64,000 bases of DNA, taken from a virus (taxonomy: Duplodnaviria; Caudoviricetes). The notes under the pieces were generated by a model. That model searched no databases. It saw only the letters and a program-made list of their open reading frames with translations, and was not told the origin of the DNA. Below are positions 7,334 to 54,011 of the stretch, one piece after another. Both the position numbers and the translations under genes were made by a program. The stretch spans positions 58,951 through 122,950 of the IMG/VR virus record IMGVR_UViG_3300017913_001781, one strand, 5' to 3'. Position 1 is the first letter of the stretch; each line of letters starts with the position of its first letter.

Positions 7334-7702
7334 ATGAAAACATTTTTAGAATATCTAAACGAGCAAGACATTTCAGAAAAAGATCTTCTTATTTTAAACG
7401 AAGGTCTTCAAAGCGAGTGGACCGATGAATTAGAAGCTAAAGTCGATGAAGCTATAAATGCATTTGCGTCTGAATACATGCTAGAAGACGGAACTTATGA
7501 TATCGATAGATTCAATGAAGAAATGACCAATGAAGGTATATTGGGTAGTATTATAGGTGGTCTTACTGGTTTTGCTCTAGGTAAATCAGTTGGTAAATTA
7601 ATAGCTAAAGTTTTAGGTGTACAAAAGGGTGTATTATATGACCTTCTGACTTCAAGATTAGTTGGCGCAGCTTTAGGAGCTTCTCTGGGAAAAAGATTTT
7701 AA
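7334..7702 (+). CDS. Putative internal head protein with a capsid-targeting leader and a C-terminal glycine-zipper segment
   Basis: Starts MKTFLEYLNE. The C-terminal GILGSIIGGLTGFALG...LVGAALGASLG is hydrophobic and GxxxG-rich. Late motif at 7322. Confidence 0.5.
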   Translation: MKTFLEYLNEQDISEKDLLILNEGLQSEWTDELEAKVDEAINAFASEYMLEDGTYDIDRFNEEMTNEGILGSIIGGLTGFALGKSVGKLIAKVLGVQKGVLYDLLTSRLVGAALGASLGKRF

Positions 7703-7703
7703 A

Positions 7704-8354
7704 GTGAATTACGTAGCAGTAGACTTTTCTCTTAACTCTCCTGGCATTTGCATTTACAATGACAAGAGTAAAAAGTACCAATTTATAAGTTATATTAAAA
7801 CAAAAACGGGTACAAAGGCCGAACAAGCTTTTCAAGAAGACATATCTAAACTTAAGGATGTGGCCTTAATTTATCAACCTGACTTTACAACAAGCGATGC
7901 TTACTCAAGCCAAGAGTTGAATAAAATTAAAAGATATGATAAGATGGCAGATGATATTGTCAATCTTATATTACAAGAGTCTCAGCAAGGAGACGGTTAT
8001 ACTATAGCATTTGAGGGTACAAGCTATGGTTCAAAAATGGGAACTAATAATATGATTGATATGGCAGCCGGCGCTGCAATCTTAAAACTAAAAATGTTAA
8101 AGATCTTTAAACCTGAAGATATTCAAACAATTGCTCCAACTACAATCAAGAAATTTGCAGGTAAAGGTAATATGAATAAATTACAATTATGTCAGGCCTT
8201 TTTAGATAATGTAAATGGAGATCCATTTTTAATGAAGGGAGAATTATTTCATTTTGTTACTAATAACATAACCATTGAAAAGAAAATTCCAAAGCCATTA
8301 GATGACCTTATTGATGCTTATTTTCTTTCAGCTCTTTTGGCATCAAAAGCTTAA
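7704..8354 (+). CDS. RuvC-like Holliday junction resolvase
   Basis: Acidic catalytic motifs VAVDFSLNSPG, IAFEG, APTTIKKFA.GKGN..K and DDLIDAY. Confidence 0.8.
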   Translation: MNYVAVDFSLNSPGICIYNDKSKKYQFISYIKTKTGTKAEQAFQEDISKLKDVALIYQPDFTTSDAYSSQELNKIKRYDKMADDIVNLILQESQQGDGYTIAFEGTSYGSKMGTNNMIDMAAGAAILKLKMLKIFKPEDIQTIAPTTIKKFAGKGNMNKLQLCQAFLDNVNGDPFLMKGELFHFVTNNITIEKKIPKPLDDLIDAYFLSALLASKA

Positions 8355-8451
8355 AGCCTATTCTTTCCCTGAAACCTAAAACCATTTATTGTATGCTAGT
8401 TGCCACGTTATGTTTCATGAAGAAACAAAAAGAAAAAGAGATATATAAGAT

Positions 8452-8679
8452 ATGTTGATGATTGATATAAATTATCCTAACATGGACATAAACACGTATG
8501 AGTTTCTTCAACTCAATAAGATCCTCAATAAAATGGTGTCAAATGGCCTAATTTCTCAAGAAGAAAAAGAAGAGCTATTACACAAATCAGGGCTGATTAA
8601 GCTAGAGGATGGAAGTTGGAGACCTACGAAAGATGATCCATCGATGAAGACTAAGATATTTCTTTCTGAAACTCTTTAA
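8452..8679 (+). CDS. Small hypothetical protein
   Basis: 75-aa ORF immediately after the GATATATA late motif at 8440. The start codon is uncertain. Confidence 0.5.
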   Translation: MLMIDINYPNMDINTYEFLQLNKILNKMVSNGLISQEEKEELLHKSGLIKLEDGSWRPTKDDPSMKTKIFLSETL

Positions 8680-8694
8680 GATTTAAAGGTATAA
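8667..8694 (+). promoter_or_regulatory. Middle-type promoter TGAAAC-N17-TATAA (gp32 operon)
   Basis: Motif with conserved spacing upstream of replication genes. Confidence 0.6.
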
Positions 8695-8746
8695 CAAGCA
8701 ACTTAAAGCTAATTTTAAGGTATTAACAAATTAAAGGTTTTTTATT

Positions 8747-11346: not shown

Positions 11347-11369
11347 GGAGAAGAAAACAACGAGTCAAT

Positions 11370-12878: not shown

Positions 12879-12902
12879 AAAAAGTAAAATATTACTATAA
12901 TC

Positions 12903-13532
12903 ATGAATAAATTACAAGACTTTAATAGCTTTGCTTCTGCTAAAAGACAAGAGGCTCAAATCAAGTTAGAGCAAGAGCAAGAAGCGAAAAGAACATCTAG
13001 TGCCGAAACATTTAAATCTCTTTTAGCAGAATACGGCGTAACAGATCTTAATGAATTAGATGAAGAACAAAAAACTTCTTTCTTTTTAAAGTTAAGAGGC
13101 GGAGAAGTAAACGAGGACGTTAACTATATGATTGATAGATTAGAAGAGGCATATTCAGTTACTGAAGCTGAAGTTAAGTCTGAAGAAGAGTTTCAAGAAT
13201 ATGCAATGACTGTCTTGAAAAAAGCATTTGGTGAAGATTTTGATGAAGCTAAAGCACAAGAAACTATCGATGGTATTCTTGGTAAGGCAAAAGGAGACTA
13301 TGGTGCAGCTATAGGTATGCTAACATCTTCTTTAGGAGAATCAGTAAAGGTCAATGAATCCGATATTAAATCAGACGAAGATTTTAAAGAGTATGCATTC
13401 TCAGTTCTTCAAAAAGCATTTGGAGACGAGTTTGACGAAGCAAAGGCTCAAGAAGTAGTAGACGGAATTCTATCTAAAGCCGGCGGTGATTATGGTGAAG
13501 CTGCGGGTATGCTACAAAGCTCACTTGGATAA
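12903..13532 (+). CDS. Putative internal head protein with two tandem 58-aa domains
   Basis: Late motif at 12870, leader MNKLQDFNSF, and an internal duplication. Confidence 0.55.
   Translation: MNKLQDFNSFASAKRQEAQIKLEQEQEAKRTSSAETFKSLLAEYGVTDLNELDEEQKTSFFLKLRGGEVNEDVNYMIDRLEEAYSVTEAEVKSEEEFQEYAMTVLKKAFGEDFDEAKAQETIDGILGKAKGDYGAAIGMLTSSLGESVKVNESDIKSDEDFKEYAFSVLQKAFGDEFDEAKAQEVVDGILSKAGGDYGEAAGMLQSSLG
13164..13529 (+). repeat. Two 58-codon intragenic repeats (13164-13337 and 13356-13529)
   Basis: EAEVKSEEEFQEYAMTVLKKAFGEDFDEAKAQETIDGILGKAKGDYGAAIGMLTSSLG versus ESDIKSDEDFKEYAFSVLQKAFGDEFDEAKAQEVVDGILSKAGGDYGEAAGMLQSSLG. Confidence 0.95.
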
Positions 13533-14821
13533 TGAATAAAATCCTATTATATAGAGATTTTTTAAATGAAAGAGCGCAGCCCATAGACATGGGCTATTCT
13601 CTTGTTATGGAGGGCGGTGCAGCTGGTCATATGAATCATCCATTTGATGATAAGTCTTTAACTTTTGGAGACTTTAAAAAGATTGTAGAATACGGTCTTA
13701 GAGGAGAACTTAATTTCGAAGAAGCTGCTACTGAAAAAACAGATGGACAAAACGTATTTGCCACTATTCAAGATGGTGAGGTAAAGTTCGCTAGAAACAA
13801 GACAGAACTAATCACGCCAATGGACTTGAATACATTTAAGCAAAAATTTGATAACCATGCAAGCGCTATGGTTGAAGAGACTTTTAAGTTGGCCGCTGAA
13901 GATTTAGCATCTCAGTTAATGAAATTACCAAATAATGTTCAAGAAGAAACATTTGAAAATGGACTTAATTGGATGAATATGGAATTGATCTATTCTAGAA
14001 ACCCAAATGTTATTTATTATGACAGAGATGTAATTCAATTCCATGGTATCAAGAAGACTGATGGTCAAGGTAATATTATCGGAGAAGATAATAAACCAGC
14101 ATCTTCATTAGTTAAAGCATTGGCAGCAGTTAAAGCGAATGTTGGTAAAACATTTACAATAATTCCCCCACAAATCATTAAGCTTGGTAAAGACATAGAT
14201 TTTGAAACCAATAGAACTAAATTCTTAAAACAAATTGAAGTACTTAGAAATAAGTATAATTTAACCGATGCTGATGAAGTATCGCGTTATCATGAGATGT
14301 GGTGGAGAGATCAAATTGAAGAAACTTTTGGCGAATTAACACAAGACCATAAAGAAGGGCTTTTACTAAGATGGGCTTATGGTGATAAAAAGACTCTTAA
14401 CCTAAGACAGCTTAAGAAAGAGGTTACTTCAGACCAAATGGATGCTATTAAAAAATATGATAAAGAAGACGTTAAGAAAAAGTACAAAGAAAACATTAGA
14501 CCATTTGAAGATTTATTCCTAGAATTGGGTTCTATTATTCTTAAGAACGCCTCTAACTTTGTCGCTGCTAATCCAAGCGCAGAAATGCAAAGATTACATA
14601 ATCAAATTAGAACAGAAGCTGAAAAAATTAAAAAAGGAGGCGACGTTAATCAAATTAAAAAGGTTGAAGCAGAGCTTGCAAGATTAGAAAGAATCGGAGG
14701 AGTAGAATCTATTATGCCAACCGAGGGTATAGTATTCGTGTATAAAGGTAAAACATTTAAGCTTACTGGAACTTTCGCTGCTATAAATCAACTTATGGGA
14801 ATTATAAAATACGGCAGATAA
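13532..14821 (+). CDS. RNA-ligase/capping-enzyme-fold covalent nucleotidyltransferase (DUF6267-like) with a capsid-targeting leader
   Basis: Motif I EKTDGQN, FARNK, III NMELIY, IIIa IQFHG, IV EGIVF, V FKLTG. Leader MNKILLYRDFLNE. Confidence 0.65.
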   Translation: MNKILLYRDFLNERAQPIDMGYSLVMEGGAAGHMNHPFDDKSLTFGDFKKIVEYGLRGELNFEEAATEKTDGQNVFATIQDGEVKFARNKTELITPMDLNTFKQKFDNHASAMVEETFKLAAEDLASQLMKLPNNVQEETFENGLNWMNMELIYSRNPNVIYYDRDVIQFHGIKKTDGQGNIIGEDNKPASSLVKALAAVKANVGKTFTIIPPQIIKLGKDIDFETNRTKFLKQIEVLRNKYNLTDADEVSRYHEMWWRDQIEETFGELTQDHKEGLLLRWAYGDKKTLNLRQLKKEVTSDQMDAIKKYDKEDVKKKYKENIRPFEDLFLELGSIILKNASNFVAANPSAEMQRLHNQIRTEAEKIKKGGDVNQIKKVEAELARLERIGGVESIMPTEGIVFVYKGKTFKLTGTFAAINQLMGIIKYGR

Positions 14822-16662
14822 TGGCACTTCAAGATCTAAGAAAACATTTTAATTCAGTTAATAGAAACGAGTTTATGGCTTTGTTAAAGCAAAGATGCTT
14901 GGTTACTGAAAAAATTCAAGCTTCTTCCTTTCATGTTAGAAATACAGATAAAGGCTATGACTACTATAAAAGCGGTTCTAAAACACCTATGAATAGGGTT
15001 GATAGAACAATAGTTAGGTATTATGAAAGTGCTATTGACTATTTTAGATCTATTCCTAAAGAAGTTAGAGAAGATATGCCAAAGGATTGGAAATTTGGTT
15101 TTGATTACATGACTGAAAAAAGAACAGTTGATATTCAATACGATGCTCTTCCCAAAAACAATCTTATATTAACACATATTCAAGTTTTAAATCCAACTGA
15201 CCCAACTCAAATTAAGAAAGTAATTAGAGACCCTAAAGTTCTTGAAAAATGGTCTAATATGTTACAAGTTCAGGCTCCTCCTATATTATTCAACGGAGTT
15301 TTAGATTCTAATCAAAAAGACATGTTAGTTGAGCTTTTAGAAATGAATAATGAATCATTTAAGAACGTATTTGAAAATACTTCCTTTACTAGAAAGGTCT
15401 ATAGTATTTTTAATCACATGGCAAATAAGACCGCTCTCAATGAAGGTTTAGATGGAGATATAGATTCGCTTATAGTTTCTTTTATAGACAAAAAGAATAT
15501 TAAGAACTTTAAACTTGGTAGATTTGATAAAGTTGAAGAAAAAGAAAGAGAAGCTTCCGACATGTATCAAATTACTATTCTAGATCTTGTCGAGTATATG
15601 ACTCAGTTCAATATGGATGATGTAAAATTGGTAGAAGAAGATACAGACTTAAGATACATTGAGCTAGTTTCAGAGATATTTAATCAATATATGTCTAAGA
15701 ACGCCGTCAAGTATATAGGCGCTGAGTTTGATTCGGCGGGTTTTTCTAGTAGAAAGGGATTTGAACTCAATAAAGACTTTATCAAAAACGAAGGCACGGT
15801 AAAGCTAATTCAAAACGAAGATTTATCGGAATTATTTAAGATTATGTTGGGATCATTTAGAAAAAAAAGAACAAAAGAAACCAAGATCATAAATGCCGAC
15901 CTTATGTCTCAAATGAACGAAATTGTAGAAAAGATAGAGTCCGCCGTCTTTGCAAAAAAGAATGAATCAGAGATTATGACATTTAATACTTACTTAAAGC
16001 AAGAAAAGCTAAAAACCCAAGTTAGTCCAATTATTGAAGCGCTAACAGTCGAACATCCTGATCAGGGGGCAAAGCCGGTTAATATGTTTGTTGGTAGATT
16101 CCAACCTTTTACATTAGGACACGCTAAAGTTATAGACGCTATTCATAAACAAAACGGTTATCCCGTTGTTATTTTCTTAGTTAAGTCAAAGACTAAGAAA
16201 AAAGAGGATGCATTTAAAAGACCCTATTCTGAAGAACTACAAATTGAAATGTTGGAAAAACTAAAAAAGAAGTATCCAATTGAAGAGGTATTTGTTATAC
16301 CTTCTGCAGCCATCGACAAAATGTTTAATGAAATGAGACCTAAATATGAACCGGTTCTTTGGGGAACTGGAACTGATAGATTAAAGGTTTATAGCTATCA
16401 AGTAGATAAGCAAGAATATAGAGATGATTTAGGCGTCAGAGATGATTTTGGACTGTTCGAGATACCAAGAACTGGTAAGAATATTTCAGCAACTCAAGTT
16501 AGAAATGCAATGTTAGCTGGAGATGAAAAAGAGTTTAAGAAGCTAACACCGAGGGAGATTCATTCGATGTATTTAAAACTTAAAGATACGTTAGAGCAAT
16601 CAATGGCAACAATGGAGTCCACGTCAAACATTATGACTTTCAATCAGTTCTTAAAATCCTAA
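14821..16662 (+). CDS. Fusion of a degenerate ligase-fold domain and an HxGH-family (cytidylyltransferase/NMNAT-like) nucleotidyltransferase
   Basis: N-terminal TEKIQASSF, APPILFNG, DIDSLIV, NFKL. C-terminal FVGRFQPFTLGH, GTDR, ISATQVR. Confidence 0.7.
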   Translation: MALQDLRKHFNSVNRNEFMALLKQRCLVTEKIQASSFHVRNTDKGYDYYKSGSKTPMNRVDRTIVRYYESAIDYFRSIPKEVREDMPKDWKFGFDYMTEKRTVDIQYDALPKNNLILTHIQVLNPTDPTQIKKVIRDPKVLEKWSNMLQVQAPPILFNGVLDSNQKDMLVELLEMNNESFKNVFENTSFTRKVYSIFNHMANKTALNEGLDGDIDSLIVSFIDKKNIKNFKLGRFDKVEEKEREASDMYQITILDLVEYMTQFNMDDVKLVEEDTDLRYIELVSEIFNQYMSKNAVKYIGAEFDSAGFSSRKGFELNKDFIKNEGTVKLIQNEDLSELFKIMLGSFRKKRTKETKIINADLMSQMNEIVEKIESAVFAKKNESEIMTFNTYLKQEKLKTQVSPIIEALTVEHPDQGAKPVNMFVGRFQPFTLGHAKVIDAIHKQNGYPVVIFLVKSKTKKKEDAFKRPYSEELQIEMLEKLKKKYPIEEVFVIPSAAIDKMFNEMRPKYEPVLWGTGTDRLKVYSYQVDKQEYRDDLGVRDDFGLFEIPRTGKNISATQVRNAMLAGDEKEFKKLTPREIHSMYLKLKDTLEQSMATMESTSNIMTFNQFLKS

Positions 16663-16693: not shown

Positions 16694-19189
16694 ATGAAAT
16701 TCCAAGATTTCCTAAATGAAAAGAAAGTAACGTTAAAGAGACGTTACACTGAAAATCATCCAGCGATGGAAGCTGGTTTAACGGCAAGAGTCAGAAACAA
16801 AATGATAGAAGCGGTTGCTGATGGCACGTTAACTCAAGAAGAGTTTAATTCTATTTTATCTGAATTAAGCAATGATTCTAAAAGATGGATGACCAGAAAT
16901 GCAAAATACTTTAATGTATCAGAAGACGGTATCACATTATCTAGATTTGGTAAAAGAGTTCTTAAAACATTTGCAATTAATGAAAATGAAGGCTTTATTT
17001 TAGAATCTACGCGTTCTCAAATTGGTATCATTGATAGAAGAGGCGTTATTCACTCTACATATGTTCATAGCGATGGTTATCCAGAAGGTGTAGGCCAAAT
17101 GGCAAAAGATCATTTTTCTGACACTAAAAAGATGAAAGAACTATTAAAACTTGGAAAGAATGGTATTTCATATTTAGAGCCTGGTATTGAAGGTGGTGAA
17201 GGACACCACTTTAATACACCAATCGATGGTCAAACAGTATTTTATGGTAGAGATAGAGGCGAAACTAAATACAATATGACTCAAAAAAGAAAGTTAGAAG
17301 ATCTAGATGATTATCTACAAGATGTTGCCTTTGATGGTGCAGAATATGTTTATCTTTGGGATGAAAAAGAAAAAGAGTGGAAGTACGCAGTTGCTAAAAC
17401 TAAAGACGGTAGACAAATGGGTCTTCAAGTCCTAGAGTCTGAGTTAATAGAAGATGATGTTATAGAAGAAGGTAAATATGAAGATATGTTAGATAAAGGA
17501 GATGGACATATTCACTTTATTTTAAAGGATGAAAAGACTGCTGAAAAATTAGCTGATAAAATTGAAGAGGAAGGTTTAGGTGATTGTGATTTTTATCCTC
17601 AAGGTAAAAAGATTTACTTAAGAGTTTCTTTAACAGGGCAGGAAAATAAAGCAAATTCTAATATACCTAAGATAGAAAAGATTGTAGGTATGAAAGCTAA
17701 GTCTGGCTCACCAGAAACATGGGATGGTTCTATGTTGGGTGAAGGTAGAAACGCATTTATTACTGCAGCTAGAGCAGCTAAAGCAGAAGGTTTAAAAGAA
17801 TTTGAATTTAAGGGTAAAACCTTTCCGGTTACAGTAAAAGATGTAAGTGAGGAAGCTCCCGAAGTAGAAGAAACAAAAGAAGTTACAGAAAATAAATTAG
17901 TCTCAGAATCATTTGGAAAGTTTATTGCTTCTCTAAATGAAGAAAATGTTAATGAATGGGGAACTTCTGATAGCTATGCTATGAGTGAAGTAATTCACTA
18001 TATGATTAGAAAGCCTAAAAACATGCCATCTCCGTTTGATAAAAAACTAAGAGATGCGGCTGAAAGTGCAGTTGATAGATATTGGGATGAGTGGCCTGAA
18101 TACAAAACCAATTATGAAGGTTTAGTAGACGACGCCGTTAGAACTTATTTAAGACATTTTCATAGAGAAGAGTTTAAATTGGCCCAAAGAATGTTTGAGC
18201 CAGTAGAGTCAAATTCTATTGAAGTAGGAGAGGACGTTAACGAGGCATTTAAGTCAGCCAAATTAGCTCAACTTTTTAATACTAAAATATCTCGCAGTTG
18301 GTCTTCTAGCTCATTAAAGGACTTACCTAAAGCTTTTTATAACATGGCTAATATTGCTTTAGATAAAGTAGAGGATGAAGATATAATTGATATGAGTGCA
18401 GCTGAAGCGCATGCTATAACTAGAAAGGACAAAGATAATCGCTATGTTATATTTTACGTAGTAGATCAACAAAAAGAAAATCCGCATGCTGGTTACGAAG
18501 GGCAAAAAACTATCCCAGCTGGTATTTTGGCTATTGTTAAGGGTAATCAATTTCAAGGCATGGCATGGGGCCGTAATTCATCCGGCCACGGCCGAACTTT
18601 AGCATCTAGCGAACCTGGTGATAGCGTAGGTATTAGTAAAAAGTATAAAGGCTGGGATTCAACGGGCCTTTACAATCCTAAGAGAATTTCAGAGGTTGCA
18701 GATAGAGCAGTTGTCTTAGATACTGCGGTACTTAGAGATAAGTATTCAACTGCTGGAAAGATGGCTGATAGAGCAGCCGCTAAGAAAGGTGCAATCGCTT
18801 TTAAATCAGATAAAGATTTCAAAAGAGAAAATATGAAGCGATATAAAGAGATCTTAGCAGACAAAGCAGCTAACTTACCTCTAGATAAAATGGTTAAGGA
18901 CGCGGTAGATGCTTTAACTTTACAAATTCAACAGGGTCTAGCTAAAGGTGAAGTCGAAAATGGAGAGCCCTTAATCGGTAGAAATTCAAAGGGTAGAGCA
19001 GTAAAAATGAGAGACGCCGCTAATCATATGTCTCAGATTTTAGATAATTACTCAAACTATGTGAGATATTCTAATGAAGCTCAAAGCGGTCTTATTGGAT
19101 CTAGCTATTACGAAACAAGAGTTAAGGACGAAGCCAAGCTTATCAAAGACAGAATTGATAAAATTGAAAATATGGACTATGCCTGGTAA
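16694..19189 (+). CDS. Multidomain putative internal head polyprotein
   Basis: Late motif at 16661 and leader MKFQDFLNE. Domains are separated by acidic (I/L/V)xE-rich linkers and include an STRSQIG..YVHSDGYPEGVG domain and an EGRNAFITAARAAKAEGLKEFEF motif. Confidence 0.6.
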   Translation: MKFQDFLNEKKVTLKRRYTENHPAMEAGLTARVRNKMIEAVADGTLTQEEFNSILSELSNDSKRWMTRNAKYFNVSEDGITLSRFGKRVLKTFAINENEGFILESTRSQIGIIDRRGVIHSTYVHSDGYPEGVGQMAKDHFSDTKKMKELLKLGKNGISYLEPGIEGGEGHHFNTPIDGQTVFYGRDRGETKYNMTQKRKLEDLDDYLQDVAFDGAEYVYLWDEKEKEWKYAVAKTKDGRQMGLQVLESELIEDDVIEEGKYEDMLDKGDGHIHFILKDEKTAEKLADKIEEEGLGDCDFYPQGKKIYLRVSLTGQENKANSNIPKIEKIVGMKAKSGSPETWDGSMLGEGRNAFITAARAAKAEGLKEFEFKGKTFPVTVKDVSEEAPEVEETKEVTENKLVSESFGKFIASLNEENVNEWGTSDSYAMSEVIHYMIRKPKNMPSPFDKKLRDAAESAVDRYWDEWPEYKTNYEGLVDDAVRTYLRHFHREEFKLAQRMFEPVESNSIEVGEDVNEAFKSAKLAQLFNTKISRSWSSSSLKDLPKAFYNMANIALDKVEDEDIIDMSAAEAHAITRKDKDNRYVIFYVVDQQKENPHAGYEGQKTIPAGILAIVKGNQFQGMAWGRNSSGHGRTLASSEPGDSVGISKKYKGWDSTGLYNPKRISEVADRAVVLDTAVLRDKYSTAGKMADRAAAKKGAIAFKSDKDFKRENMKRYKEILADKAANLPLDKMVKDAVDALTLQIQQGLAKGEVENGEPLIGRNSKGRAVKMRDAANHMSQILDNYSNYVRYSNEAQSGLIGSSYYETRVKDEAKLIKDRIDKIENMDYAW

Positions 19190-19251: not shown

Positions 19252-20421
19252 ATGCCCGCTCTTAGTAAAGTACAACAAAGATTAATGGGAATGGCTTACG
19301 CTTATAAGAAGGGTGAGCTTGACTCTAAAGATGCTAGTCAAGAGGTTAAAGATCTCGCAGATTCTATGACTCTTAAGCAGCTTAAGAAATTTGCTGCAAC
19401 TAAACACGAAGGTTTACCAGAAAGAGTACCTGAAAATATTCAAGCCGGTCAAATTAATGGCATGGGTCCAATACAATTACCCGCTGACGGTTTACTTGGA
19501 TCTGGAGATGTACCTGCTGGTAGGGGCGACGCAGAAGAAGAATATAAAAAAAAGAAAAAGAAGATGGCAAACTTCGAAGAATTTATAAATGGGTTAAATA
19601 CTCAACCCAAATCAGGTGTTAATGAAACTAGATTTTACGCAATATTTCAAGGCGCAAAGCATGAAATTGAAGCAGATAGTCTATGGGCTGCAAAGCAAAA
19701 GGCTATCACAGATCTAAAGGTCAAAAAGAAAGATGTTGGATTATTGGCGATTGTAAATGCAGACGAACATGATGATTTTTCTAAGGGAAAGAAGGGACAA
19801 TTCCAATTTGAGTCTGATCAAGTCGACGAAGTTTATACCGGAACCGCATCTGATTTTAAATATGAATTTCCAAACCAATTTGAAGATGTCACGGGTTTTT
19901 CTGATAAAGCCATTAAAGGTATTAGAAAGAAAGGTAAAAATGGCTACGAAGTTAGAACTTCTACATATGCCGGTAAAGAATATATGGAAGCTGTTGGTAA
20001 ACAAATGGGTCTAGAACTTAAAAAGTTTGAGAAGCATAGTAATATGTGCATCACTGTTTATGAATCTGTTATCTCTGAAATCAGAACGTCTAGTTGGGGA
20101 GATTTAGAATATACAGAAGAAGATGTCAATAAAACTCACGGATGGTGTGGCACTTTAGCTAACGAATTAGGTGAAGATAAAGCTATGTTTTTAACTCATC
20201 AAGGAATTCATGACCTTCAAAAAAGACACATGGGTTTAACAGCTTGGGAAGCTTTAGCTGTTCTTAATTCAAAAGCAGGTAGACATGCGGCTGAAGCCTT
20301 TTTAGGAGGAGAAGCTGCCGCATCTGATACTACTTCAGCATTGATTTGGTACTTTGGTAGTAAAAGAAAGGTACAGCAAGCTGCTAAAGAAGAAGCAGAG
20401 CTTCAATTTCCAAGTAAGTAA
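19252..20421 (+). CDS. DUF3008-like N-terminal domain multidomain protein
   Basis: The N-terminus MPALSKVQQRLMGMA...SMTLKQLKKFAATKHEGLP matches the DUF3008 pattern. There is an internal MANFEEFING and VNE/VYE/ISE linkers. Confidence 0.6.
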   Translation: MPALSKVQQRLMGMAYAYKKGELDSKDASQEVKDLADSMTLKQLKKFAATKHEGLPERVPENIQAGQINGMGPIQLPADGLLGSGDVPAGRGDAEEEYKKKKKKMANFEEFINGLNTQPKSGVNETRFYAIFQGAKHEIEADSLWAAKQKAITDLKVKKKDVGLLAIVNADEHDDFSKGKKGQFQFESDQVDEVYTGTASDFKYEFPNQFEDVTGFSDKAIKGIRKKGKNGYEVRTSTYAGKEYMEAVGKQMGLELKKFEKHSNMCITVYESVISEIRTSSWGDLEYTEEDVNKTHGWCGTLANELGEDKAMFLTHQGIHDLQKRHMGLTAWEALAVLNSKAGRHAAEAFLGGEAAASDTTSALIWYFGSKRKVQQAAKEEAELQFPSK

Positions 20422-41244: not shown

Positions 41245-42618
41245 ATGCGTTATTTAGATTTTAACCAATTTGTAAACGAATCAAATTCAATTAATGAAGC
41301 TATTACTATGGCTTCTGATCCGAAGCTACGCAAAGCGGCAGACCTTATTTTTGCTTATATGAATAAGCACACTAAGATGAATTTTAAAGCTATTCAATTT
41401 GACGAAATAGCTTTATTCGATGGTACAGAGACGGTTGGAAATATAGCGGTTAGTGATAAAGGTAAATTTCCAGCAATAAGAGTTGTCGCAAATAGTAATG
41501 CTAATAGACCTGGAATTGTTGGACAAATTGAATATTATTCTGAGATTGGACCTAATACTCAATGTGATTTTGTATTTTCATCAGAAAGTTTTCCAATTGT
41601 ACAATTAGTTACTGAGGCTGCTAGAATTATAAGCGATAAAAAATATGCAGCTGAGGCTGAGGCCGCAATGAACGAGTCTATAGTAAATGAAGCTTCTGCT
41701 AAATTAACTACAGAAGAAGTTAAAATGGTTTCTCAGCAGCTTAGGGCTGGAAAATCAGCTAAGCAAATTTCACAGGATCTTGGAGTTCCTTATTATAAGA
41801 TTCTTAAAATTAGAAAGAACGCTCCGGTAACTACTAAAGATCACCCCGCCGTTGCTATGAACGAAGAAACTTTAGAAGATAAAGTAAAGTTTCTTGAGGA
41901 GACAATGGAAGATATCTATCAGATCTCTAGAAAAGTTGCAGCTGGGGCTTTTAACTCTCTATTTATTTCAGGTAGAGCCGGTACAGGTAAGACATATAAT
42001 GTTGAAAAAGCGATGAAAGATGAAGGTCTAGTTGAAGAAGACGACTTTATGTTAATTTCAGGAGCTGTTTCAGTTATTATGATGTATAAGAAAATGTATC
42101 AATATAGAGATAAGACTCTTATCTTTGATGACTGTGATGCAGTATTTAGAGATGAGAACGGCCGTAATATGTTGAAGGCTGCTCTTGATACCAAGAAGAT
42201 TAGAAAGATTTCATACTTAAAAAGATCTAGCTTAGTTTTCGACCCTAAAGATTTTGAGAATGATCCACAGGGAGAATATGAAGCAATTGAAAACGGCTTA
42301 GTACCGGCATATTTTGAGTTCTCAGGTAGAGTTATTTTTATCTCTAACCTAGATAAAGATAAAGCTGACCCCGATGGAGCTATTAGATCTAGATCTATTC
42401 TTGTTGATGTTAATCCTGACGATGCGACTCTAATGGAAAGAATGAGAAAGCTTTTACCTCATTTAGAGCCAAAAGATATGGCTTTAAATGAAAAGGAAGA
42501 AATATATGAGTTTATGAAAGAGGCTGACGATGTTTCTATGAGAACTTTCGTTAAGGCGGCTGGCTTTAAGATGGCTGGACTTTCTAATTGGAAAAGAATG
42601 GCTCAACGCTATCTATAA
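41245..42618 (+). CDS. AAA+ ATPase with a capsid-targeting-like leader and HTH
   Basis: Leader MRYLDFNQFVNE, HTH-like GKSAKQISQDLGVPYYKI, Walker A GRAGTGKT, Walker B LIFDDCD, FISN and AIRSRS. Late motif at 41212. Confidence 0.75.
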   Translation: MRYLDFNQFVNESNSINEAITMASDPKLRKAADLIFAYMNKHTKMNFKAIQFDEIALFDGTETVGNIAVSDKGKFPAIRVVANSNANRPGIVGQIEYYSEIGPNTQCDFVFSSESFPIVQLVTEAARIISDKKYAAEAEAAMNESIVNEASAKLTTEEVKMVSQQLRAGKSAKQISQDLGVPYYKILKIRKNAPVTTKDHPAVAMNEETLEDKVKFLEETMEDIYQISRKVAAGAFNSLFISGRAGTGKTYNVEKAMKDEGLVEEDDFMLISGAVSVIMMYKKMYQYRDKTLIFDDCDAVFRDENGRNMLKAALDTKKIRKISYLKRSSLVFDPKDFENDPQGEYEAIENGLVPAYFEFSGRVIFISNLDKDKADPDGAIRSRSILVDVNPDDATLMERMRKLLPHLEPKDMALNEKEEIYEFMKEADDVSMRTFVKAAGFKMAGLSNWKRMAQRYL

Positions 42619-47865: not shown

Positions 47866-48204
47866 ATGAAATATTTAAGACTATTTGAACAATTTATAAA
47901 AGAGGCTAAAGATTCAGTTTTAGCTGGAGATGACTCTAAAGTAGAAGTAGATTCCGTTATTACAGTAAAGGGCAAAAAGATTTCTGCTCAAGAAATTTTA
48001 GGGGCTATTATTTCTTCAGATACAGAGAAAGAAATTGAACAATATTTTTATGATAAGTATGGTGAAGGATCATTCTCTATTGAAGCTATGTCGGCTATAA
48101 AAAAAGCCTTTAACGACTATGGCGCCGAACAAGCTGAAGAAGAAAAGGAAAAAGAAAAAGAGGAGAAAGAAGCAGAAGAGGATGACGGCGGATTAGGTAT
48201 CTAA
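47866..48204 (+). CDS. Putative prohead core/internal protein
   Basis: Lies between portal and protease (the gp67/68 position), with leader MKYLRLFEQFIKE and an acidic tail. Confidence 0.55.
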   Translation: MKYLRLFEQFIKEAKDSVLAGDDSKVEVDSVITVKGKKISAQEILGAIISSDTEKEIEQYFYDKYGEGSFSIEAMSAIKKAFNDYGAEQAEEEKEKEKEEKEAEEDDGGLGI

Positions 48205-48262: not shown

Positions 48263-50212
48263 ATGGCAGATTTAAAAAATTTATTGATAGTCGAGAGATC
48301 GTCTGGCAGCTTATCAGTTGCTGGTGAATCTAAAGACTATGTGCTAGAGGGTATTTTTGGAGAAATTGACTCTAAAAATAAAAACAATCGTATTTATACA
48401 GAAAGTGAATACGTCCCCCAAATTGAAGCACTACAAAATAAAATCAAGTCGTCTAAGCTTCTAGGAGAATTAGACCACCCTCAGCAATTTGATATTTCAT
48501 TAAAAAATGTTTCTCACGTGATCGAGGAACTTTTTTATGATGGAGACTCTAAGCAAGTAAGAGGTAGAATTAGACTACTTGATACTGATGCTGGAAGACA
48601 AGCTAAAGCGCTGGTTGATGCTGGTGTCCCATTGCAAATTTCTTCTAGAGCTGCTGGTACTGTAGAGTCCAGCGGAAAAGTAAAAATCAAGCAACTATTT
48701 ACTTATGACTTAGTTGCAGATCCTGGTTTCGAGAATGCCGAACTCTCAAGAGTAAATGAGTCATACGGTTTCTCTAATGATGAAAATTTATTCATCTACG
48801 AGATCGGATCTTCTCAAGTATTAGAAACAACAAACTCAAATCAAAATAATATTGAAAAAATGGAAGAATTTGTAAACGCAAATGACTTCAATAAGTATAC
48901 AGAGTACTTGGCTGAAGAGATTAAGACTCTAAAGAACTCTATCGATGAAGTCAAGACAGGATCTGATAACACTCCAGTTACAGAACAAATCCAAGAGGTT
49001 ATTGCTCATAACGATCACTTAGTTGAAAACATTAACAGAATCTCCGAGTACACTCAGTACTTGGCAGAACAGTTAGACAAGAATATTCAATATACTGAAT
49101 ACGTTGCTGAGCAGGCTGATAATGGTATTCAATACGCTGAGCACGTCGCAGAAAAGTTGGATCAGTCTATTCAATACTCTGAGCATATTGCAGAAAAGGC
49201 GGATCAAGGCATCCAATATTCTGAGCATGTTGCAGAAAAAGTTGATCAGTCTATTCAGTATACTGAAACTGTCGCTGAGTCAGTAAACAAGTTAAAAGAG
49301 TATGCTAACTATATTGCAGAAGCTAGCAACGAAGGTTTCACCGAGAACGATAAGTTGATTGAATATGTTGACTACTTGAAAGAGAACCTAGAATCAGTTA
49401 CAGAATATGCGCAATACATTGCTGAGTCTATCAACGAGAATCTAGTTACTGAAGAAGAAGGTACTGAGGCTGGTAAAGAAGTTGAAGATCTTGAAAAGGA
49501 CACTGAGGTTGGAGATAACTCTAAAGAAGGTGATGTATCTAAAGACATTGAAGATGCAACTACTGATGCAGAAGATCTAAAAGCTGATCTTAAAAAGTCA
49601 GACTCTGAAGTTGAAGATGAGACTAAGGATGGAGAAGATCCAGCTAAGTCTGATGTTGGCGAAGACGGAGCTCATGATCCACTAGAAGCTTACAAGACTG
49701 AGATTAGTTCTAAGCTTGATACTCTAGTTGAGAAGGCGCTAATTAAAGAAAACGAAAACCCATCATTCTTTAGAATCGTTTCAGGTTCTACTCAGTCTAA
49801 GTACAATGAGTTGAATGAGGATGCTAAGAAAGAAGTTAGACAAGCTGTTGCAAAGCGCGGTTTTATGACTGAGGCACAAATCGTTTCTCTAATCGAGTCT
49901 TCGCAGTTGATTGTTGAAAACAGAAATGCAGAGCCATTTGTTCTATCAGCAATGCCTTCTGAGTACAGAGAGCAATGGGAATCATTGTCAGAATCTAAGC
50001 AAGCACAAGTTCTTGCTCAGTCTAAGTACTTTACTCTAAACACTGAGTATCAAGTAGCTAACTTCTGGCAAACTAGAGACCTAAGAGAGTCTAAGCCTAA
50101 TATGGAAAGACTTGAAATGGTCAACGAAAAGAAGTCAGTTCAAGAAGAGACTAAGCCAATGTACGATGTTTCTGCTTATGCTGATCAATTAAAAAAGAGA
50201 TTTAAGAAATAA
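48263..50212 (+). CDS. Prohead protease (gp21-like) fused to scaffold (gp22-like)
   Basis: Protease motifs LEGIF, NKNNRIY, LGELDHP, VSH, ISSRAAG and YDLVADPGF, followed by about 450 aa of acidic coiled coil with 14-aa repeats. Confidence 0.88.
   Translation: MADLKNLLIVERSSGSLSVAGESKDYVLEGIFGEIDSKNKNNRIYTESEYVPQIEALQNKIKSSKLLGELDHPQQFDISLKNVSHVIEELFYDGDSKQVRGRIRLLDTDAGRQAKALVDAGVPLQISSRAAGTVESSGKVKIKQLFTYDLVADPGFENAELSRVNESYGFSNDENLFIYEIGSSQVLETTNSNQNNIEKMEEFVNANDFNKYTEYLAEEIKTLKNSIDEVKTGSDNTPVTEQIQEVIAHNDHLVENINRISEYTQYLAEQLDKNIQYTEYVAEQADNGIQYAEHVAEKLDQSIQYSEHIAEKADQGIQYSEHVAEKVDQSIQYTETVAESVNKLKEYANYIAEASNEGFTENDKLIEYVDYLKENLESVTEYAQYIAESINENLVTEEEGTEAGKEVEDLEKDTEVGDNSKEGDVSKDIEDATTDAEDLKADLKKSDSEVEDETKDGEDPAKSDVGEDGAHDPLEAYKTEISSKLDTLVEKALIKENENPSFFRIVSGSTQSKYNELNEDAKKEVRQAVAKRGFMTEAQIVSLIESSQLIVENRNAEPFVLSAMPSEYREQWESLSESKQAQVLAQSKYFTLNTEYQVANFWQTRDLRESKPNMERLEMVNEKKSVQEETKPMYDVSAYADQLKKRFKK
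49046..49321 (+). repeat. 42-bp (14-aa) tandem repeat, about 6.5 copies
   Basis: EYTQYLAEQLDKNI / QYTEYVAEQADNGI / QYAEHVAEKLDQSI / QYSEHIAEKADQGI / QYSEHVAEKVDQSI / QYTETVAESVNKLK / EYANYIAE. Confidence 0.92.
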
Positions 50213-50628
50213 TGAAATACGTAAAATTATTCGAACAGTTTCTCATAGCTGAGAAGTCAATTGACGTTCATGATAAAGTAAGGACTGACCCTGCATTTGC
50301 TAAAAAGATGTTACGCTATGCAGATGAAGAATCCGAAGGCGGCGCAGATTACCAAGAAAGCTACACTGTACAAACTAAACCACCTAATTGGGATGGACCT
50401 TTAATGACTTTCGGTACACTCGATGCTATATTTGGTATGTTAGGTCGTGATGTTGACGAGGCTCCTTTTGATTGGGGTGTAAATGTCCACCGCGAAGACG
50501 GAATTGAATACTTTGCTTATGATGAAGAGCATGTAATACCTTTTAAATTAAAAGGTGCTAAATTGGTAGATGTAATTAAAGTAATTACGCTTGCAATGAA
50601 AAAGGCTAAAGCATTATACGACAAATAA
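50212..50628 (+). CDS. Putative internal head protein
   Basis: Leader MKYVKLFEQFLIAE, located between scaffold and capsid genes. Confidence 0.55.
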   Translation: MKYVKLFEQFLIAEKSIDVHDKVRTDPAFAKKMLRYADEESEGGADYQESYTVQTKPPNWDGPLMTFGTLDAIFGMLGRDVDEAPFDWGVNVHREDGIEYFAYDEEHVIPFKLKGAKLVDVIKVITLAMKKAKALYDK

Positions 50629-50665: not shown

Positions 50666-50752
50666 AAACTATCGACGAATAGGGCGACAGAAGCAGAAAG
50701 CCCAAGTAAATGTCGAATTTAAACAAACCGCAAAAAAATAAAAAATTTAATT

Positions 50753-52285
50753 ATGCAAAAAATTAATGAAGCGGAAATCAGAAACACTTGGGCTCCAATT
50801 ATCGAGGAGGCTACTGGTATCTCTGATTCTAACAAATTGGCTTGGATGAGCGAATACTGCCACAATCACAAGCTTTACGAGGACGCAAACATCATGTCCT
50901 TATCAAACAACCCTGGTCCTATGAACCTAACCGGTATGGGCGCAGTTACTTTCCCAGGTGCAGCTAACACTGCAAATGTTGGAGGTTCTGGCACTAATGG
51001 TTCAGGCGACAAGGCTCCAACTCTATTGCCATTGGCAATGCAAGTTGCAGCTCAGACTATCGGTCTAGACTTGGTACCTGTTGTACCAATGGCTGGTCCT
51101 ATGGGTCTACTATCTTACCTAGACTTCACTTACGAAGGAGGTACAGTTGGTTTACAAAACAACGCAGCTTCAGAAGCACCTACTTACATCAAGGTTGCTG
51201 CTACTACAGCAACAGCTGACATCGCTGCTGCTGCAGACCACGCAGGTTACACCCACGAGGCTGCATCAAGAATTGATGGTAAGCAAATCTTTAAAGTAGA
51301 AGGCGCTATTGTTCAAACTACTGTTGCTCTTGACTTAGCATTTGCTTTAGGGGATGCCGAAGTTCCAGCAGAAGATGCAGACGAAGCTGCTGTTGCTGCA
51401 CAGGCAGAGGAAAATGCCGCTGCAGCTGATGCACTAGAAGTCGAATTGGTTAAGGCTCTTGACGATCACATCCCAGGTTTCTCTGGTAATGCTGATGGTT
51501 CTCCTTACTCAAGAGAAGACGGCGAAAGAACGGCTGACAGACTAATGGGCATGAGCCTATTCAGCAAGTCAGTTGCTGCTGAAACTTTCCAAGTTGCAGC
51601 TGCTGTTACTCGTGAGCAGGTTCAAGACTTGAAGCAATTCGGTGTTGACGCTGTTGCTCAGGTTGAGTCAGTTCTAACCAACGAGTTAACTCAGTCTATC
51701 AACGCTCACATCCTAAGATCAATGAGAGCACTTGCATCTGATAACGCTACTAAGGCTGGATTCACAGCATCTGTAAACCTTTCTGTTGCTGGATCTATTT
51801 ACGGTGGTGACACTAGAGGTGAAGCTCACAGAAGAATGTTAACTAACATCTTGGCTGCAGCTAACTTGATTGCTAACAGAGGTAGAAGAGGTGCTGGTAA
51901 CTTCGCTATCGTTGACGCTAAAGTTGCTTCAGCTATGCAGGGTATCGCTGGTTTCGTACCAAACCCAATGGCTAACACATTCAACCAGGTTGCAGGTGCA
52001 ATCTACCCAGTTGGATCTGTTGCAGGTATCAACCTTTACACTGATCCTCTAATGCCATTCAACGGTGTTGATAATAAGCACGAAATTCTAGTTGGTCGTA
52101 AGGGTGACGGTAACGGTCCTGGTCTAGTATTCATGCCTTACTTGATGGCTGAATCAGTACAAACTATCGCTGAGGGTACTATGGCTCCTAAGGTTGCAGT
52201 TAAGTCTCGCTATGCACTAGTTGAGGCTGGCTTCCACCCAGAGACTCAGTACATCTCATTCGATGTTGAAGGTCTAGAGCTATAA
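50753..52285 (+). CDS. Major capsid protein (T4 gp23-like)
   Basis: TWAPIIE, VPVVPMAGPMG, EQVQDLK..GVDA, ELTQSIN, RRGAGNF, FMPY and KSRYAL. Highly biased codon usage. Confidence 0.95.
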   Translation: MQKINEAEIRNTWAPIIEEATGISDSNKLAWMSEYCHNHKLYEDANIMSLSNNPGPMNLTGMGAVTFPGAANTANVGGSGTNGSGDKAPTLLPLAMQVAAQTIGLDLVPVVPMAGPMGLLSYLDFTYEGGTVGLQNNAASEAPTYIKVAATTATADIAAAADHAGYTHEAASRIDGKQIFKVEGAIVQTTVALDLAFALGDAEVPAEDADEAAVAAQAEENAAAADALEVELVKALDDHIPGFSGNADGSPYSREDGERTADRLMGMSLFSKSVAAETFQVAAAVTREQVQDLKQFGVDAVAQVESVLTNELTQSINAHILRSMRALASDNATKAGFTASVNLSVAGSIYGGDTRGEAHRRMLTNILAAANLIANRGRRGAGNFAIVDAKVASAMQGIAGFVPNPMANTFNQVAGAIYPVGSVAGINLYTDPLMPFNGVDNKHEILVGRKGDGNGPGLVFMPYLMAESVQTIAEGTMAPKVAVKSRYALVEAGFHPETQYISFDVEGLEL

Positions 52286-52316
52286 TCTTAAAGATTAGAA
52301 TTCAATACAATATAAG

Positions 52317-52345
52317 GAAAGCCCGCAAATGCGGGCTTTCTTTTT
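52317..52345 (+). terminator. Rho-independent terminator after the capsid gene
   Basis: GAAAGCCCGC-AAAT-GCGGGCTTTC-TTTTT. Confidence 0.9.
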
Positions 52346-52370
52346 GCTTCAAATTTAGATTTAACAAGAG

Positions 52371-52378
52371 GATATATA
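52371..52378 (+). promoter_or_regulatory. Late promoter GATATATA
   Basis: Recurrent octamer, after the capsid terminator. Confidence 0.75.
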
Positions 52379-52406
52379 CAAAAACGATAATACAATAATT
52401 ATTAAC

Positions 52407-54011
52407 ATGAAACTAAAGAATAAACTAAAAATGTTTGAGGAGTTTACTTCCGCTGAGAAGAACACTAAAACAACAATCGACTCAAAGGGAGCAGTAAAGA
52501 CTTCATCAAATCGAACTACAGCTATTTTAGATGACGTAGACGGCATTTTAAATAATTTAGAGGCTTTGTCTAAGCAAATTGACGAGGGTCAGTTGTTCGA
52601 AGCTGAAGGAGGTTTAGATGCACTATTTAAAAAACTAAATAGTATGATGGCTATAGCCCAATGCAGAGGTAAATGGAGAGAATATGAAAAATTAATGCAA
52701 GAGGCTAACGCTGATTTAATAGAAGTTCTTACATATGAAAAGGGAAAGAAAATAGCAGAAGCTATTGAAGCTTTAGAAAATAAAGCAGAATCAGCAGACG
52801 CAGATCAAAAGATAAAAATCAAAAAGAAAATAGCACAGGCTAAAGAACAAAAAGCTGAATTAAAAGCTATGATCGATTCTGATACTGTTAAAAAACAACA
52901 AAAATTAGATCAGTTTAAAACAGAATTAGGACAAGATGAACAGGAAATTATAAAGGATAACGGCGTAGGTCAGATTTACTTTAATGAAAAAAAGCAGCTT
53001 GAGGATAAAGTAACTTTAGAAGGTAAGACTAGTAAAGCTAAAATGGAACAAGAAAAGGGCAATAAAGAGGCTGCCCAAAAGCTTGCAGAAGAAATACAAA
53101 AAATAGAAAAAGCTGCAAAAGAAACTGCTAAAAAAATAGCAGATGGAGAAGCTGAATCAGAAGAAGATATTAAAGAGTTAAGAGGAGCGGCTCCATATCA
53201 ACAAGAAATAGTAGCTATTATTAGGAATAATAAACAAGTTAAAGTTATACAAAAAGAGGCAAAAGCTGCAGCTGAAAAATTAATAGCTACACCTAATGAA
53301 TCTTTAGAATTAAATAGTCTTCAAAGCATAAATGAAAATTTAGCTACTCTTATTTCAAAAGCAAAGGGTAAGGCAAATAAAAAGGCTTTACAAGATGCAA
53401 TTGATCTTGGAAAAAAACTTAAAACTGCAAGAGAAAAAGAATTAGAACTTAAAAAAGCACTAGCAGATAAAATAAAGGGTAAAGAAGTGCCCAAATCTAT
53501 TATTCAAATAGCGGGCGGAGATCCTGAGGCTGCAGAAGAAAAAGAAAACGGATTTGTTTTAAAAACATTTATTCAAAAATTTGGAGGAGGAACAGACATG
53601 CCATCTCCTGAAGAATTTGATAGTGTAAAATCTGTTAATAAACAAATTGAAGATGCCCAGGATGCCATAGCTCAAATAGATGGCGGCAGCCCCCCGCCGT
53701 CCCCAGCCGATGGCGGTGACGATCAACTAACCGACGATCAAAAACGAAGAATTCGAGAGGAAGAAACTGTAAGAGATGAACGTCAACGAGATTTGGACGC
53801 AGAAAAAGCTAAACCTGAATCAGAACAAAACCAACAAAGAATTCAAGGCTTGGAAGCTGGAATTGCTCAAAATAATGCAGATATTGAGGCTATTAGAAAT
53901 GAAGAACCACCTGCGGAATCTGTAAGTGTACCTAATTTTAATCAGTCTATTACAGAATCATATGCATTTAAATCAGGCTCTATTGCTGATAGATTTAAAA
54001 GATTACTATAA
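52407..54011 (+). CDS. Coiled-coil putative internal head protein
   Basis: Late motif at 52371, leader ...KMFEEFTSAE, K/E/A-rich helical sequence with LFE/INE/ITE sites. Confidence 0.55.
   Translation: MKLKNKLKMFEEFTSAEKNTKTTIDSKGAVKTSSNRTTAILDDVDGILNNLEALSKQIDEGQLFEAEGGLDALFKKLNSMMAIAQCRGKWREYEKLMQEANADLIEVLTYEKGKKIAEAIEALENKAESADADQKIKIKKKIAQAKEQKAELKAMIDSDTVKKQQKLDQFKTELGQDEQEIIKDNGVGQIYFNEKKQLEDKVTLEGKTSKAKMEQEKGNKEAAQKLAEEIQKIEKAAKETAKKIADGEAESEEDIKELRGAAPYQQEIVAIIRNNKQVKVIQKEAKAAAEKLIATPNESLELNSLQSINENLATLISKAKGKANKKALQDAIDLGKKLKTAREKELELKKALADKIKGKEVPKSIIQIAGGDPEAAEEKENGFVLKTFIQKFGGGTDMPSPEEFDSVKSVNKQIEDAQDAIAQIDGGSPPPSPADGGDDQLTDDQKRRIREEETVRDERQRDLDAEKAKPESEQNQQRIQGLEAGIAQNNADIEAIRNEEPPAESVSVPNFNQSITESYAFKSGSIADRFKRLL

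Follow-up and report, generated by a model that had tools for sequence, protein, structure and literature searches.

In bacteriophage T4, a short capsid-targeting sequence (CTS) stands at the N-terminus of the internal proteins IPI, IPII, IPIII and Alt and is removed by the prohead protease gp21 (Mullaney and Black 1996, reviewed in PMC9026906 and PMC5694885). In the IPIII version, MKTYQEFIAE, residues 4 and 7 are the main determinants of targeting and residues 8 and 10 those of processing; an aspartate at position 10 stops cleavage but not targeting (PMC9026906). In the giant phages phiKZ, 201phi2-1 and SPN3US, many head-internal proteins, including enzymes, are cut after glutamate by a T4-related prohead protease (PMC5694885). 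Here we describe a family of short N-terminal leader peptides in a virus record of 122,950 bp (IMG/VR record IMGVR_UViG_3300017913_001781), the second half of which, a stretch of 64,000 nucleotides (nt) at genome coordinates 58,951-122,950, is called the window below. We estimate a probability of about 75% that this peptide is a T4-type capsid-targeting and processing tag in a distant marine clade related to T4, and about a dozen unrelated late proteins, enzymes included, are probably loaded into the head as cargo.

Its gene content places the phage in the T4 superfamily as a distant member, with T4-type homologs of the portal, the capsid protein, gp4 (head completion), gp2 (DNA-end protector), gp55 (late sigma factor) and the clamp loader. 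Nearly all genes lie on the + strand, and the G+C content is about 35%. The nearest deposited relatives of its capsid protein come from a 462-kb uncultured phage (49.8%), the Lak megaphages and Tenacibaculum phage PTm1. In IMG/VR at least 583 stretches encode a relative of the capsid protein; the best 80 of these, at 63-82% identity, come from contigs that reach 236 kb.

Like the T4 CTS, the leader comprises about 10-17 residues right after the start methionine, has the same four determinants, and is accompanied by a gp21-family protease in the same genome. It is likewise borne by unrelated, fast-changing proteins, and enzymes would be among the cargo, as Alt is in T4. Unlike in T4, conserved C-terminal copies without the cleavage glutamate and internal copies in multi-module proteins are present here, and the protease-fused scaffold, unlike T4 gp22, repeats a leader-like pattern. 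Furthermore, the capsid protein has only 22% identity to T4 gp23 in an alignment that spans the whole protein with its N-terminal propeptide, the protease domain is 29% identical to gp21, and the 10-15 leader genes here and 10-32 in relatives compare with 3 pattern matches in T4. The propeptides of the phiKZ-type giant phages are also thought to direct head incorporation, but they are mostly at least 100 residues long, do not form a common short tag and end in an S/A/G-x-E site (PMC5694885), whereas one short portable peptide is used here. The polyvalent proteins (Iyer et al. 2017, PMC5512222) are also long late proteins made of small exchangeable modules, and they are thought to be delivered with the DNA and then cut apart. 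Their processing is assigned to an internal metallopeptidase domain, whereas the junctions described here fit the prohead serine protease and bear leader-like motifs. The T4-type tag itself is thus known; new are the size of the family, the enzymes among the putative cargo, the C-terminal and internal forms, and the scaffold repeats of the same pattern.

The N-terminal leader and its genomic setting

We scored the 134 open reading frames (ORFs) of the whole 122,950-bp genome for the motif [FY]xx[FY][LIVT]x(1-2)E with a start at residue 15 or earlier, and 10 of them have it. The expected number was 0.59 when whole proteins were shuffled (maximum 6 in 2,000 shuffles), 0.66 when only residues 2-24 were shuffled (maximum 4 in 5,000), and 0.82 when N-terminal columns were shuffled between proteins (maximum 5 in 5,000). 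The leader is therefore a real and strongly non-random feature, and the expectations of 0.66-0.82 against 10 observed indicate that AT-rich N-terminal composition is not its cause. The consensus is M-K-x-[IVL]-K-[LT]-[FY]-E-x-F-[ILV]-x-E. The leader ends at residues 9-17, with 13 residues as the commonest length (T4 leaders have 10-19), and 10-15 genes of this genome carry it when looser cases are included.

The first-pass annotation of the window had reported this start for eight late genes (7334, 12903, 13532, 16694, 41245, 47866, 50212, and 52407, named by their first position), had put the family at about 10 proteins, and had noted that the replication proteins lack it. All eight N-termini read exactly as quoted, and none of the replication proteins starts with the motif. 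Gene 12903 is a weaker case, since the aromatic pair is present but [LIV]xE is missing. The family is larger than reported, with extra members upstream of the window. The tagged genes in the window, together with the portal and capsid genes of the head module, are as follows.

7334..7702, + strand: tagged protein of 122 residues; leader MKTFLEYLNE at 7334-7363
12903..13532, + strand: acidic protein of 209 residues with the weak leader MNKLQDFNSFASAK (aromatic pair, no [LIV]xE)
13532..14821, + strand: tagged protein of 429 residues, putative ligase-like nucleotidyltransferase; leader MNKILLYRDFLNE at 13532-13570
16694..19189, + strand: tagged modular protein of 831 residues; leader MKFQDFLNE at 16694-16720, internal SFGKFIASLNE at 17909-17941
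41245..42618, + strand: tagged P-loop ATPase of 457 residues; leader MRYLDFNQFVNE at 41245-41280, followed by SINE/A (here and below, a slash follows the glutamate of a candidate cleavage site)
46254: portal gene, T4-type
47866..48204, + strand: acidic tagged protein of 112 residues; leader MKYLRLFEQFIKE at 47866-47904
50212..50628, + strand: tagged protein of 138 residues between the scaffold and capsid genes; leader MKYVKLFEQFLIAE at 50212-50253
50753..52285, + strand: major capsid protein, gp23 type
52407..54011, + strand: Lys/Glu-rich tagged protein of 534 residues; leader MKLKNKLKMFEEFTSAE at 52407-52457

Before the window, three further leader genes and two looser ones were found (genome coordinates).

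3237: leader gene, ATP-grasp enzyme (Pfam R2K_3, 29.1 bits against a cutoff of 26.3)
10668: looser leader gene
11312: leader gene, GNAT-like protein, below the Pfam threshold
22872-23585: leader gene, tagged protein of 237 residues with VRHEIEHITQG (HEIEH, a zincin-type HExxH)
24351-25148: looser leader gene, hyper-acidic protein of 265 residues, leader MRKKILSFEEFSTK

The four conserved leader positions (F/Y, F/Y, I/L/V, and E) correspond to positions 4, 7, 8, and 10 of IPIII, i.e., to the two targeting and the two processing residues, and the last two fit the (L/I)-x-E rule for cleavage in T4. As a positive control, the same pattern at the DNA level was run on the T4 genome, where it returned ipII, ipIII and gp61.1. 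The last is a hypothetical protein of 54 residues encoded beside the primase gene (NC_000866, 18966-19130); it starts with MKTFKEFIKE, a full match to the pattern. Either gp61.1 is an unnoticed packaged protein of T4 or the motif is not fully specific.

An enzyme that would cut the leader is encoded by the phage itself. The protein of gene 48263 contains a Peptidase_S77 domain (46.1 bits against a cutoff of 27), and its GELDHP and ISSRAAG align to GELNHP and VSSRGLG of T4 gp21. Candidate sites for such an enzyme also occur further inside the tagged proteins. With the first 15 residues excluded, [LIV]NE[AGS] was found 8 times in them against 1.3 expected, a six-fold enrichment (p = 6e-5). The capsid protein is a likely substrate of the same protease, judging from L[IL]NE/AE at residues 3-8 and from NHKLYE/[DE]ANIM, which are both conserved in the sequences shown from a 57-protein alignment. 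The NHKLYE/[DE]A site near residue 43 is a candidate maturation site and would make the propeptide shorter than the 65-residue one of T4.

The motif [GA]ATATATA is the dominant upstream motif of the genome and, in view of the gp55 homolog, we infer that it is the late promoter. It stands ahead of the portal, protease, capsid and baseplate genes and of 10 of the 15 leader genes, and the leader genes without it directly continue the same gene runs. Thus, AATATATA lies 4 nt upstream of gene 7334 and also upstream of gene 16694, where it overlaps the stop codon of the preceding gene, and GATATATA lies 25 nt upstream of gene 12903 and 28 nt upstream of gene 52407. In addition, the leader is found on the genes that flank the protease-scaffold and capsid genes. 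Gene 47866 lies between the portal and protease genes, the slot of gp67 and gp68 in T4. The resemblance to the T4 CTS that had been pointed out at first therefore extends to the four determinant positions, the gp21-family protease, the putative late-type promoters, the location in the head module and the unrelated bodies of the tagged proteins.

Conservation and portability of the leader in relatives

In the head-module loci of relatives, the leader was found on the acidic protein between portal and protease (49 strict-motif counterparts), on the ATPase (12) and on the post-capsid protein. The homologs of the 47866 protein in other head loci have mostly kept it. The slot between scaffold and capsid is occupied in relatives by several non-homologous proteins with the same leader, and the counterparts of the 52407 protein at the same position have diverged in the body and kept the leader. 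Orthologs of the ATPase at 59% identity retain it (e.g., M.ILDFNGFLNEA), and the positional counterparts of the weakly tagged 12903 protein have similar Ar-x-x-F N-termini (Ar, aromatic residue), e.g., M.KLKSF.QF. The 13532 protein has at least 1,205 homologs; among the best 120, the leader pattern is present in about 115, with variation in the residues themselves. Around the 13532 gene, in 80 loci, the leader was carried by 255 of 1,476 ORFs.

Taking all sampled loci together, 295 distinct tagged proteins fall into 54 families whose mature parts have no detectable similarity. The domains also differ across these families and include ATP-grasp, cytidylyltransferase-like and P-loop ATPase domains and a sub-threshold GNAT match, while ten orphan tagged proteins from relatives gave no Pfam match above threshold. 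The mature part of the 7334 protein, in which an acidic stretch after the leader is followed by a C-terminal glycine-zipper or membrane-like segment, belongs to a 44-member leader-bearing family in relatives; its glycine-zipper Pfam matches were below threshold only.

In five larger relatives, on contigs of 167-236 kb, the main coding strand had 10-32 pattern matches; the opposite strand gave 0-2 and the reversed pattern 0-4. Some of these matches come from small tagged genes arranged in tandem. A Tyr variant, MKYIKEYEEF[ILV]xE, occurs in the 462-kb phage (LR756500) as about 20 in-frame copies of 13 codons. PTm1 showed no leader family, whether it was searched with the pattern or its N-termini were compared de novo in a crude way, and no clear leader family was seen in Lak-C1 or in Microcystis phage Mel-JY01 with the pattern used. 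In 596 Gb of prokaryote genomes, the canonical leader DNA pattern gave 4 matches; viral contigs gave at least 120 stretches with it. The four matches (L178-L181) lie on contigs of 3-6 kb from metagenome-assembled genomes assigned to Flavobacteriales, Pseudomonas, Promethearchaeota and an unclassified bacterium, and they are probably mis-binned phage fragments.

Among 229 distinct leaders, the first aromatic residue was F in 183 and Y in 46, and the second was F in 189 and Y in 40. The aliphatic position was I, L or V in 227 of the 229 and the last position was Glu in all of them; these leaders were gathered with a pattern that fixes the four positions, so that their constancy is partly by construction. 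Synonymous codons at the conserved positions vary freely (TTT/TTC, GAA/GAG, and AAT/AAC), which indicates that the constraint acts on the peptide and not on the RNA.

Internal and C-terminal copies, enzymes and scaffold repeats

Copies of the motif inside proteins and at one C-terminus had also been reported, and they are present in the proteins of genes 14821 (residues 385-395 and 604-613), 16694 (residues 406-416) and 19252 (residues 105-114).

14821..16662, + strand: protein of 613 residues without N-terminal tag; putative decayed ligase-like half and cytidylyltransferase-like domain
15973..16005, + strand: internal leader-like motif IMTFNTYLKQE of the 14821 protein
16630..16659, + strand: C-terminal leader-like motif IMTFNQFLKS of the 14821 protein, without Glu at the cleavage position
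19252..20421, + strand: modular protein of 389 residues; N-terminal DUF3008 (42.6 bits), internal MANFEEFING at 19564-19593

The C-terminal copy is conserved. In 59 of 62 orthologs, the 14821-type protein ends with [MLIF][TS]F..[FY][LIVMN] plus 2-6 residues, and every distinct tail printed has a non-Glu residue where the N-terminal leaders have Glu. Since the aromatic and aliphatic residues are kept without the Glu, selection acts on the putative docking half alone, which matches the dissection of the T4 sequence. Encapsulin cargo-loading peptides are short terminal, usually C-terminal, sequences that load unrelated enzymes into an HK97-fold shell. Among known systems, they offer the nearest working analogy to a C-terminal copy that would stay uncleaved, with no sequence relationship; unlike the leader, they bind the shell protein directly, and neither a protease nor a scaffold takes part.

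The internal copy of the 14821 protein is followed, about 15 residues downstream and just before the nucleotidyltransferase domain, by SPIIE/AL, and the combination of internal motif and downstream [ILV]xE/[AG]L site is conserved across 46 aligned proteins. In the relatives L089 and L090, the 14821-type protein is 426 residues long and lacks the nucleotidyltransferase domain, the two motifs being separated by about 25 residues; a separate cytidylyltransferase-like gene that starts with the usual leader adjoins it. Both relatives carry one further tagged gene, absent from the present genome, which indicates gain and loss of tagged genes at this locus.

The 16694-type proteins of close relatives have modules inserted, deleted or duplicated, often at Glu-ending junctions (VNE). 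One such module, TRFYAIF (TRFYAIFQGAKHEIEA...), follows VNE in the DUF3008 protein of gene 19252, where MANFEEFING is followed by GVNE/TRFYAIF, and is located in the 16694-type proteins of L087, L088, and L090. The different location of the module among relatives indicates that modules move between proteins, often at Glu-ending junctions. A Pfam search of the 16694 and 19252 proteins returned only DUF3008 and no defining polyvalent-protein domain. A duplicated AFKSAKLAQLF... module was seen in L089.

Three enzymes had been named among the tagged proteins: an ATPase, a nucleotidyltransferase and a ligase-fold enzyme. The support for them differs. The protein of gene 41245 is a P-loop ATPase with Walker A GRAGTGKT at residue 243 and Walker B LIFDD at residue 292 (phrog_1250, E 2.5e-41); its C-terminal half is 29.9% identical to T4 NrdC.10, and a sequence search of the PDB gave no useful match. 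The cytidylyltransferase-like domain of the 14821 protein (CTP_transf_like, residues 422-562) reached 40.2 bits against a cutoff of 21. For the ligase fold of the 13532 protein, the evidence consists of an invariant KxDG and weak structural matches. The stretch E68-K-T-D-G-Q-N74 was invariant in 51 sequences. Residues 70-209 of the predicted model matched the nucleotidyltransferase domains of RNA and DNA ligases with Z-scores of 5.6-6.4 (5cot, 6rce, and 1xdn at 5.9-6.4), and the top Foldseek matches were RNA ligases at E 0.07 with a model of mean predicted local distance difference test (pLDDT) 64.6; neither a Pfam match nor a useful PDB sequence match was obtained. The model is of medium quality, and the assignment of this protein as a putative ligase-like nucleotidyltransferase has moderate support. 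In Microcystis phage Mel-JY01 (L097, 2302-4221), the 13532 homolog forms the C-terminal two thirds of a coding sequence of 639 residues annotated as cytidylyltransferase-like, and this arrangement suggests that the ligase-like and HxGH-type nucleotidyltransferase activities may work as one system. The 22872 protein upstream of the window may be a candidate packaged metallopeptidase on account of its HEIEH, although Pfam returned nothing significant for it.

The scaffold itself contains repeats with a leader-like pattern.

48263..50212, + strand: prohead protease-scaffold fusion of 649 residues, protease at about residues 25-140
48890..49444, + strand: scaffold repeat region, residues 210-394, with 14-residue repeats I-Q-Y-[TSA]-E-[YH]-[VIL]-A-E

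The repeats and the leader have the pattern Ar-x-x-Ar-aliphatic-x-Glu in common, and the repeats account for 6 of the 25 internal motif matches of the whole proteome. All 61 distinct scaffold orthologs have 6-11 repeats, whereas T4 gp22, which starts with MLKEQLIAEA, has none. In the predicted model (mean pLDDT 54.6), residues 240-356 form one long helix; its protease domain is of low confidence and permits no conclusion on docking of the repeats in the protease. A BLOSUM-weighted profile of the repeats gave 5 N-terminal matches in the top 40 against 1.4 expected, a modest excess. The shared pattern may reflect extended protease recognition in both elements, or the leader may imitate one repeat and so dock on the scaffold. 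When leader and scaffold repeat were compared for covariation, LR756500 combined a Tyr-type leader with the same repeat type, and PTm1 had a different repeat type and no leader family.

Proposed function and alternative explanations

If the leader works like the T4 CTS, the tagged genes would be expressed late, and the two aromatic residues and the next aliphatic residue would dock each protein onto the assembling prohead core, formed by the protease-scaffold fusion with its long helix and 6-11 repeats of the same pattern. Once the shell has closed, the gp21-family serine protease would cut after the Glu of [ILV]-x-E and at the downstream [ILV]-N-E sites, and the mature proteins would be freed in the head. 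The C-terminal copies, which have the docking residues and no Glu, would allow loading without that cut, while proteins with internal copies beside [ILV]-x-E would be loaded as multi-module proteins and then cut apart. Part of the cargo, namely the enzymes and the modular proteins, would probably leave with the DNA at infection. The initial proposal of tagged proteins sent to the head and injected as anti-defense effectors is partly supported as a whole. The motif, its enrichment, conservation and portability and its genomic context are shown, whereas the steps of docking, packaging, cleavage and injection and the anti-defense roles belong to the inferred part.

Under this interpretation, capsid targeting would be older and wider than the T-even phages and would reach a large marine clade and the 462-kb phage. 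The tag would flag the particle-carried proteins of uncultivable phages and so provide candidate first-strike effectors, among them the ATP-grasp enzyme, the RNA-ligase-like enzyme with its nucleotidyltransferase, the P-loop ATPase and dozens of orphans. The Glu-less C-terminal copies and the internal copies suggest rules for loading with or without release, which would be relevant to phage heads as protein carriers. The likeness in pattern between scaffold and tag also offers a testable idea for the binding partner of the T4 targeting sequence.

A more specific version of this idea, which we regard as doubtful but worth stating, is that the tag is one unit of the 14-residue scaffold repeat, that the cargo co-assembles with the scaffold helix by the same aromatic and aliphatic contacts that join the scaffold itself, and that the Glu decides on removal. 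If so, the three modes would be an N-terminal tag that is cut off, an internal tag at which the protein is cut apart, and a C-terminal tag that is retained. It would explain what the T4 targeting sequence binds, and a string of 13 residues would be a reliable label for the proteins packaged by hundreds of uncultured phages, marine and giant ones, among them a conserved RNA-ligase-like enzyme system.

Several observations weigh against a packaging role of the leader or against its link to the scaffold. A strict profile of nine scaffold repeats retrieved no leader in the top 30, and the likeness of leader and scaffold exists at the level of the residue pattern only. With its match to T4 gp61.1, encoded next to primase, the motif on its own falls short of full specificity. 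Most tagged proteins are acidic or neutral (isoelectric points 4.1-8.7), whereas the classical internal proteins of T4 are described as basic (PMC9026906). The T4 homolog of the ATPase, NrdC.10, carries no leader in T4. In the literature, searches with the motif strings turned up no paper in which the motif is quoted. A search on the CTS in other T4-like phages likewise listed no paper on the present clade, and a paper on the flavobacterial phages Molly and Colly (124 kb) reports no virion proteomics.

The motif could also be a cleavage site or propeptide of the prohead protease and nothing else, the proteins entering the head by way of their other parts. Every N-terminal copy indeed ends in [ILV]-x-E, the scaffold, a protease substrate in T4, has the pattern 6-11 times, and Phe precedes the aliphatic residue directly in known T4 cleavage sites, namely FLTE of gp23 and FIAE of the internal proteins. 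We nevertheless consider this improbable. The C-terminal copy of 59 of the 62 orthologs keeps the aromatic and aliphatic residues in the absence of a Glu to cut after, the aromatic positions of T4 were mapped to targeting and not to cleavage (PMC9026906), and 54 unrelated families are unlikely each to own a route into the head.

Alternatively, the peptide might dock the proteins to a partner other than the capsid, for example a phage Hsp70/DnaJ pair, an intracellular compartment or a regulatory partner, and the proteins would then act in the cell. Judged from their N-termini alone, a DnaK-like gene (genome 8267-10123) and a DnaJ-like gene (12071-12895) enclose the two leader genes 10668 and 11312, an arrangement that speaks for such a pair. 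In the same direction, some tagged enzymes are without a known virion role (the NrdC.10-like ATPase and the ATP-grasp and GNAT-like proteins), and T4 gp61.1 bears the motif in an early-gene region. On the other hand, late-type promoters precede the tagged genes, the tag occurs on small proteins flanking the protease, scaffold and capsid genes, and the match to the T4 determinants includes the cleavage half, with [ILV]NE sites enriched in the same proteins. This explanation therefore has a low probability in our view, and the capsid-targeting interpretation is preferred.

An artefact of AT-rich codon usage, wrong starts or common descent, which the G+C content and the commonness of Lys, Phe, Tyr, Asn, and Glu at N-termini might have suggested, is highly improbable and was rejected on four grounds: the composition-preserving shuffles, the 54 families without detectable similarity of the mature parts, starts that directly follow late-promoter motifs or the preceding stop codon, and the absence of such a family from PTm1, another flavobacterial jumbo phage.

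The very acidic members (47866, 12903, 7334, and genome 24351) are, by analogy with T4 gp67 and gp68, more likely to be transient core components than injected effectors. In the 24351 protein, Asp and Glu together make up 121 of the 265 residues, with PE[VI]EEEP repeats and a run of Asp among them, and its charge is reminiscent of the acidic tail of T4 gp67.

The tagged coiled-coil protein of gene 52407 may act in the core as another scaffold-like protein, bound to the shell via its tail. The leader itself does not copy the C-terminal tail of the scaffold. The 52407 protein ends with ...SIADRFKRLL, and its counterparts in relatives end with [ST][IV]A[DEQ][RK]F.[AKR]L[LMI]; these tails resemble the conserved scaffold tail ...YADQLKKRFKK, and T4 gp22 ends with ...VYAKVASRF. 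Another type of leader, M..F[EQSK].W[YL].S[IV].E, starts the post-capsid protein of some relatives; its second aromatic residue is Trp, as in MKTFEQWYNS and MDKFEKWLEVINEE (L005-L084 loci).

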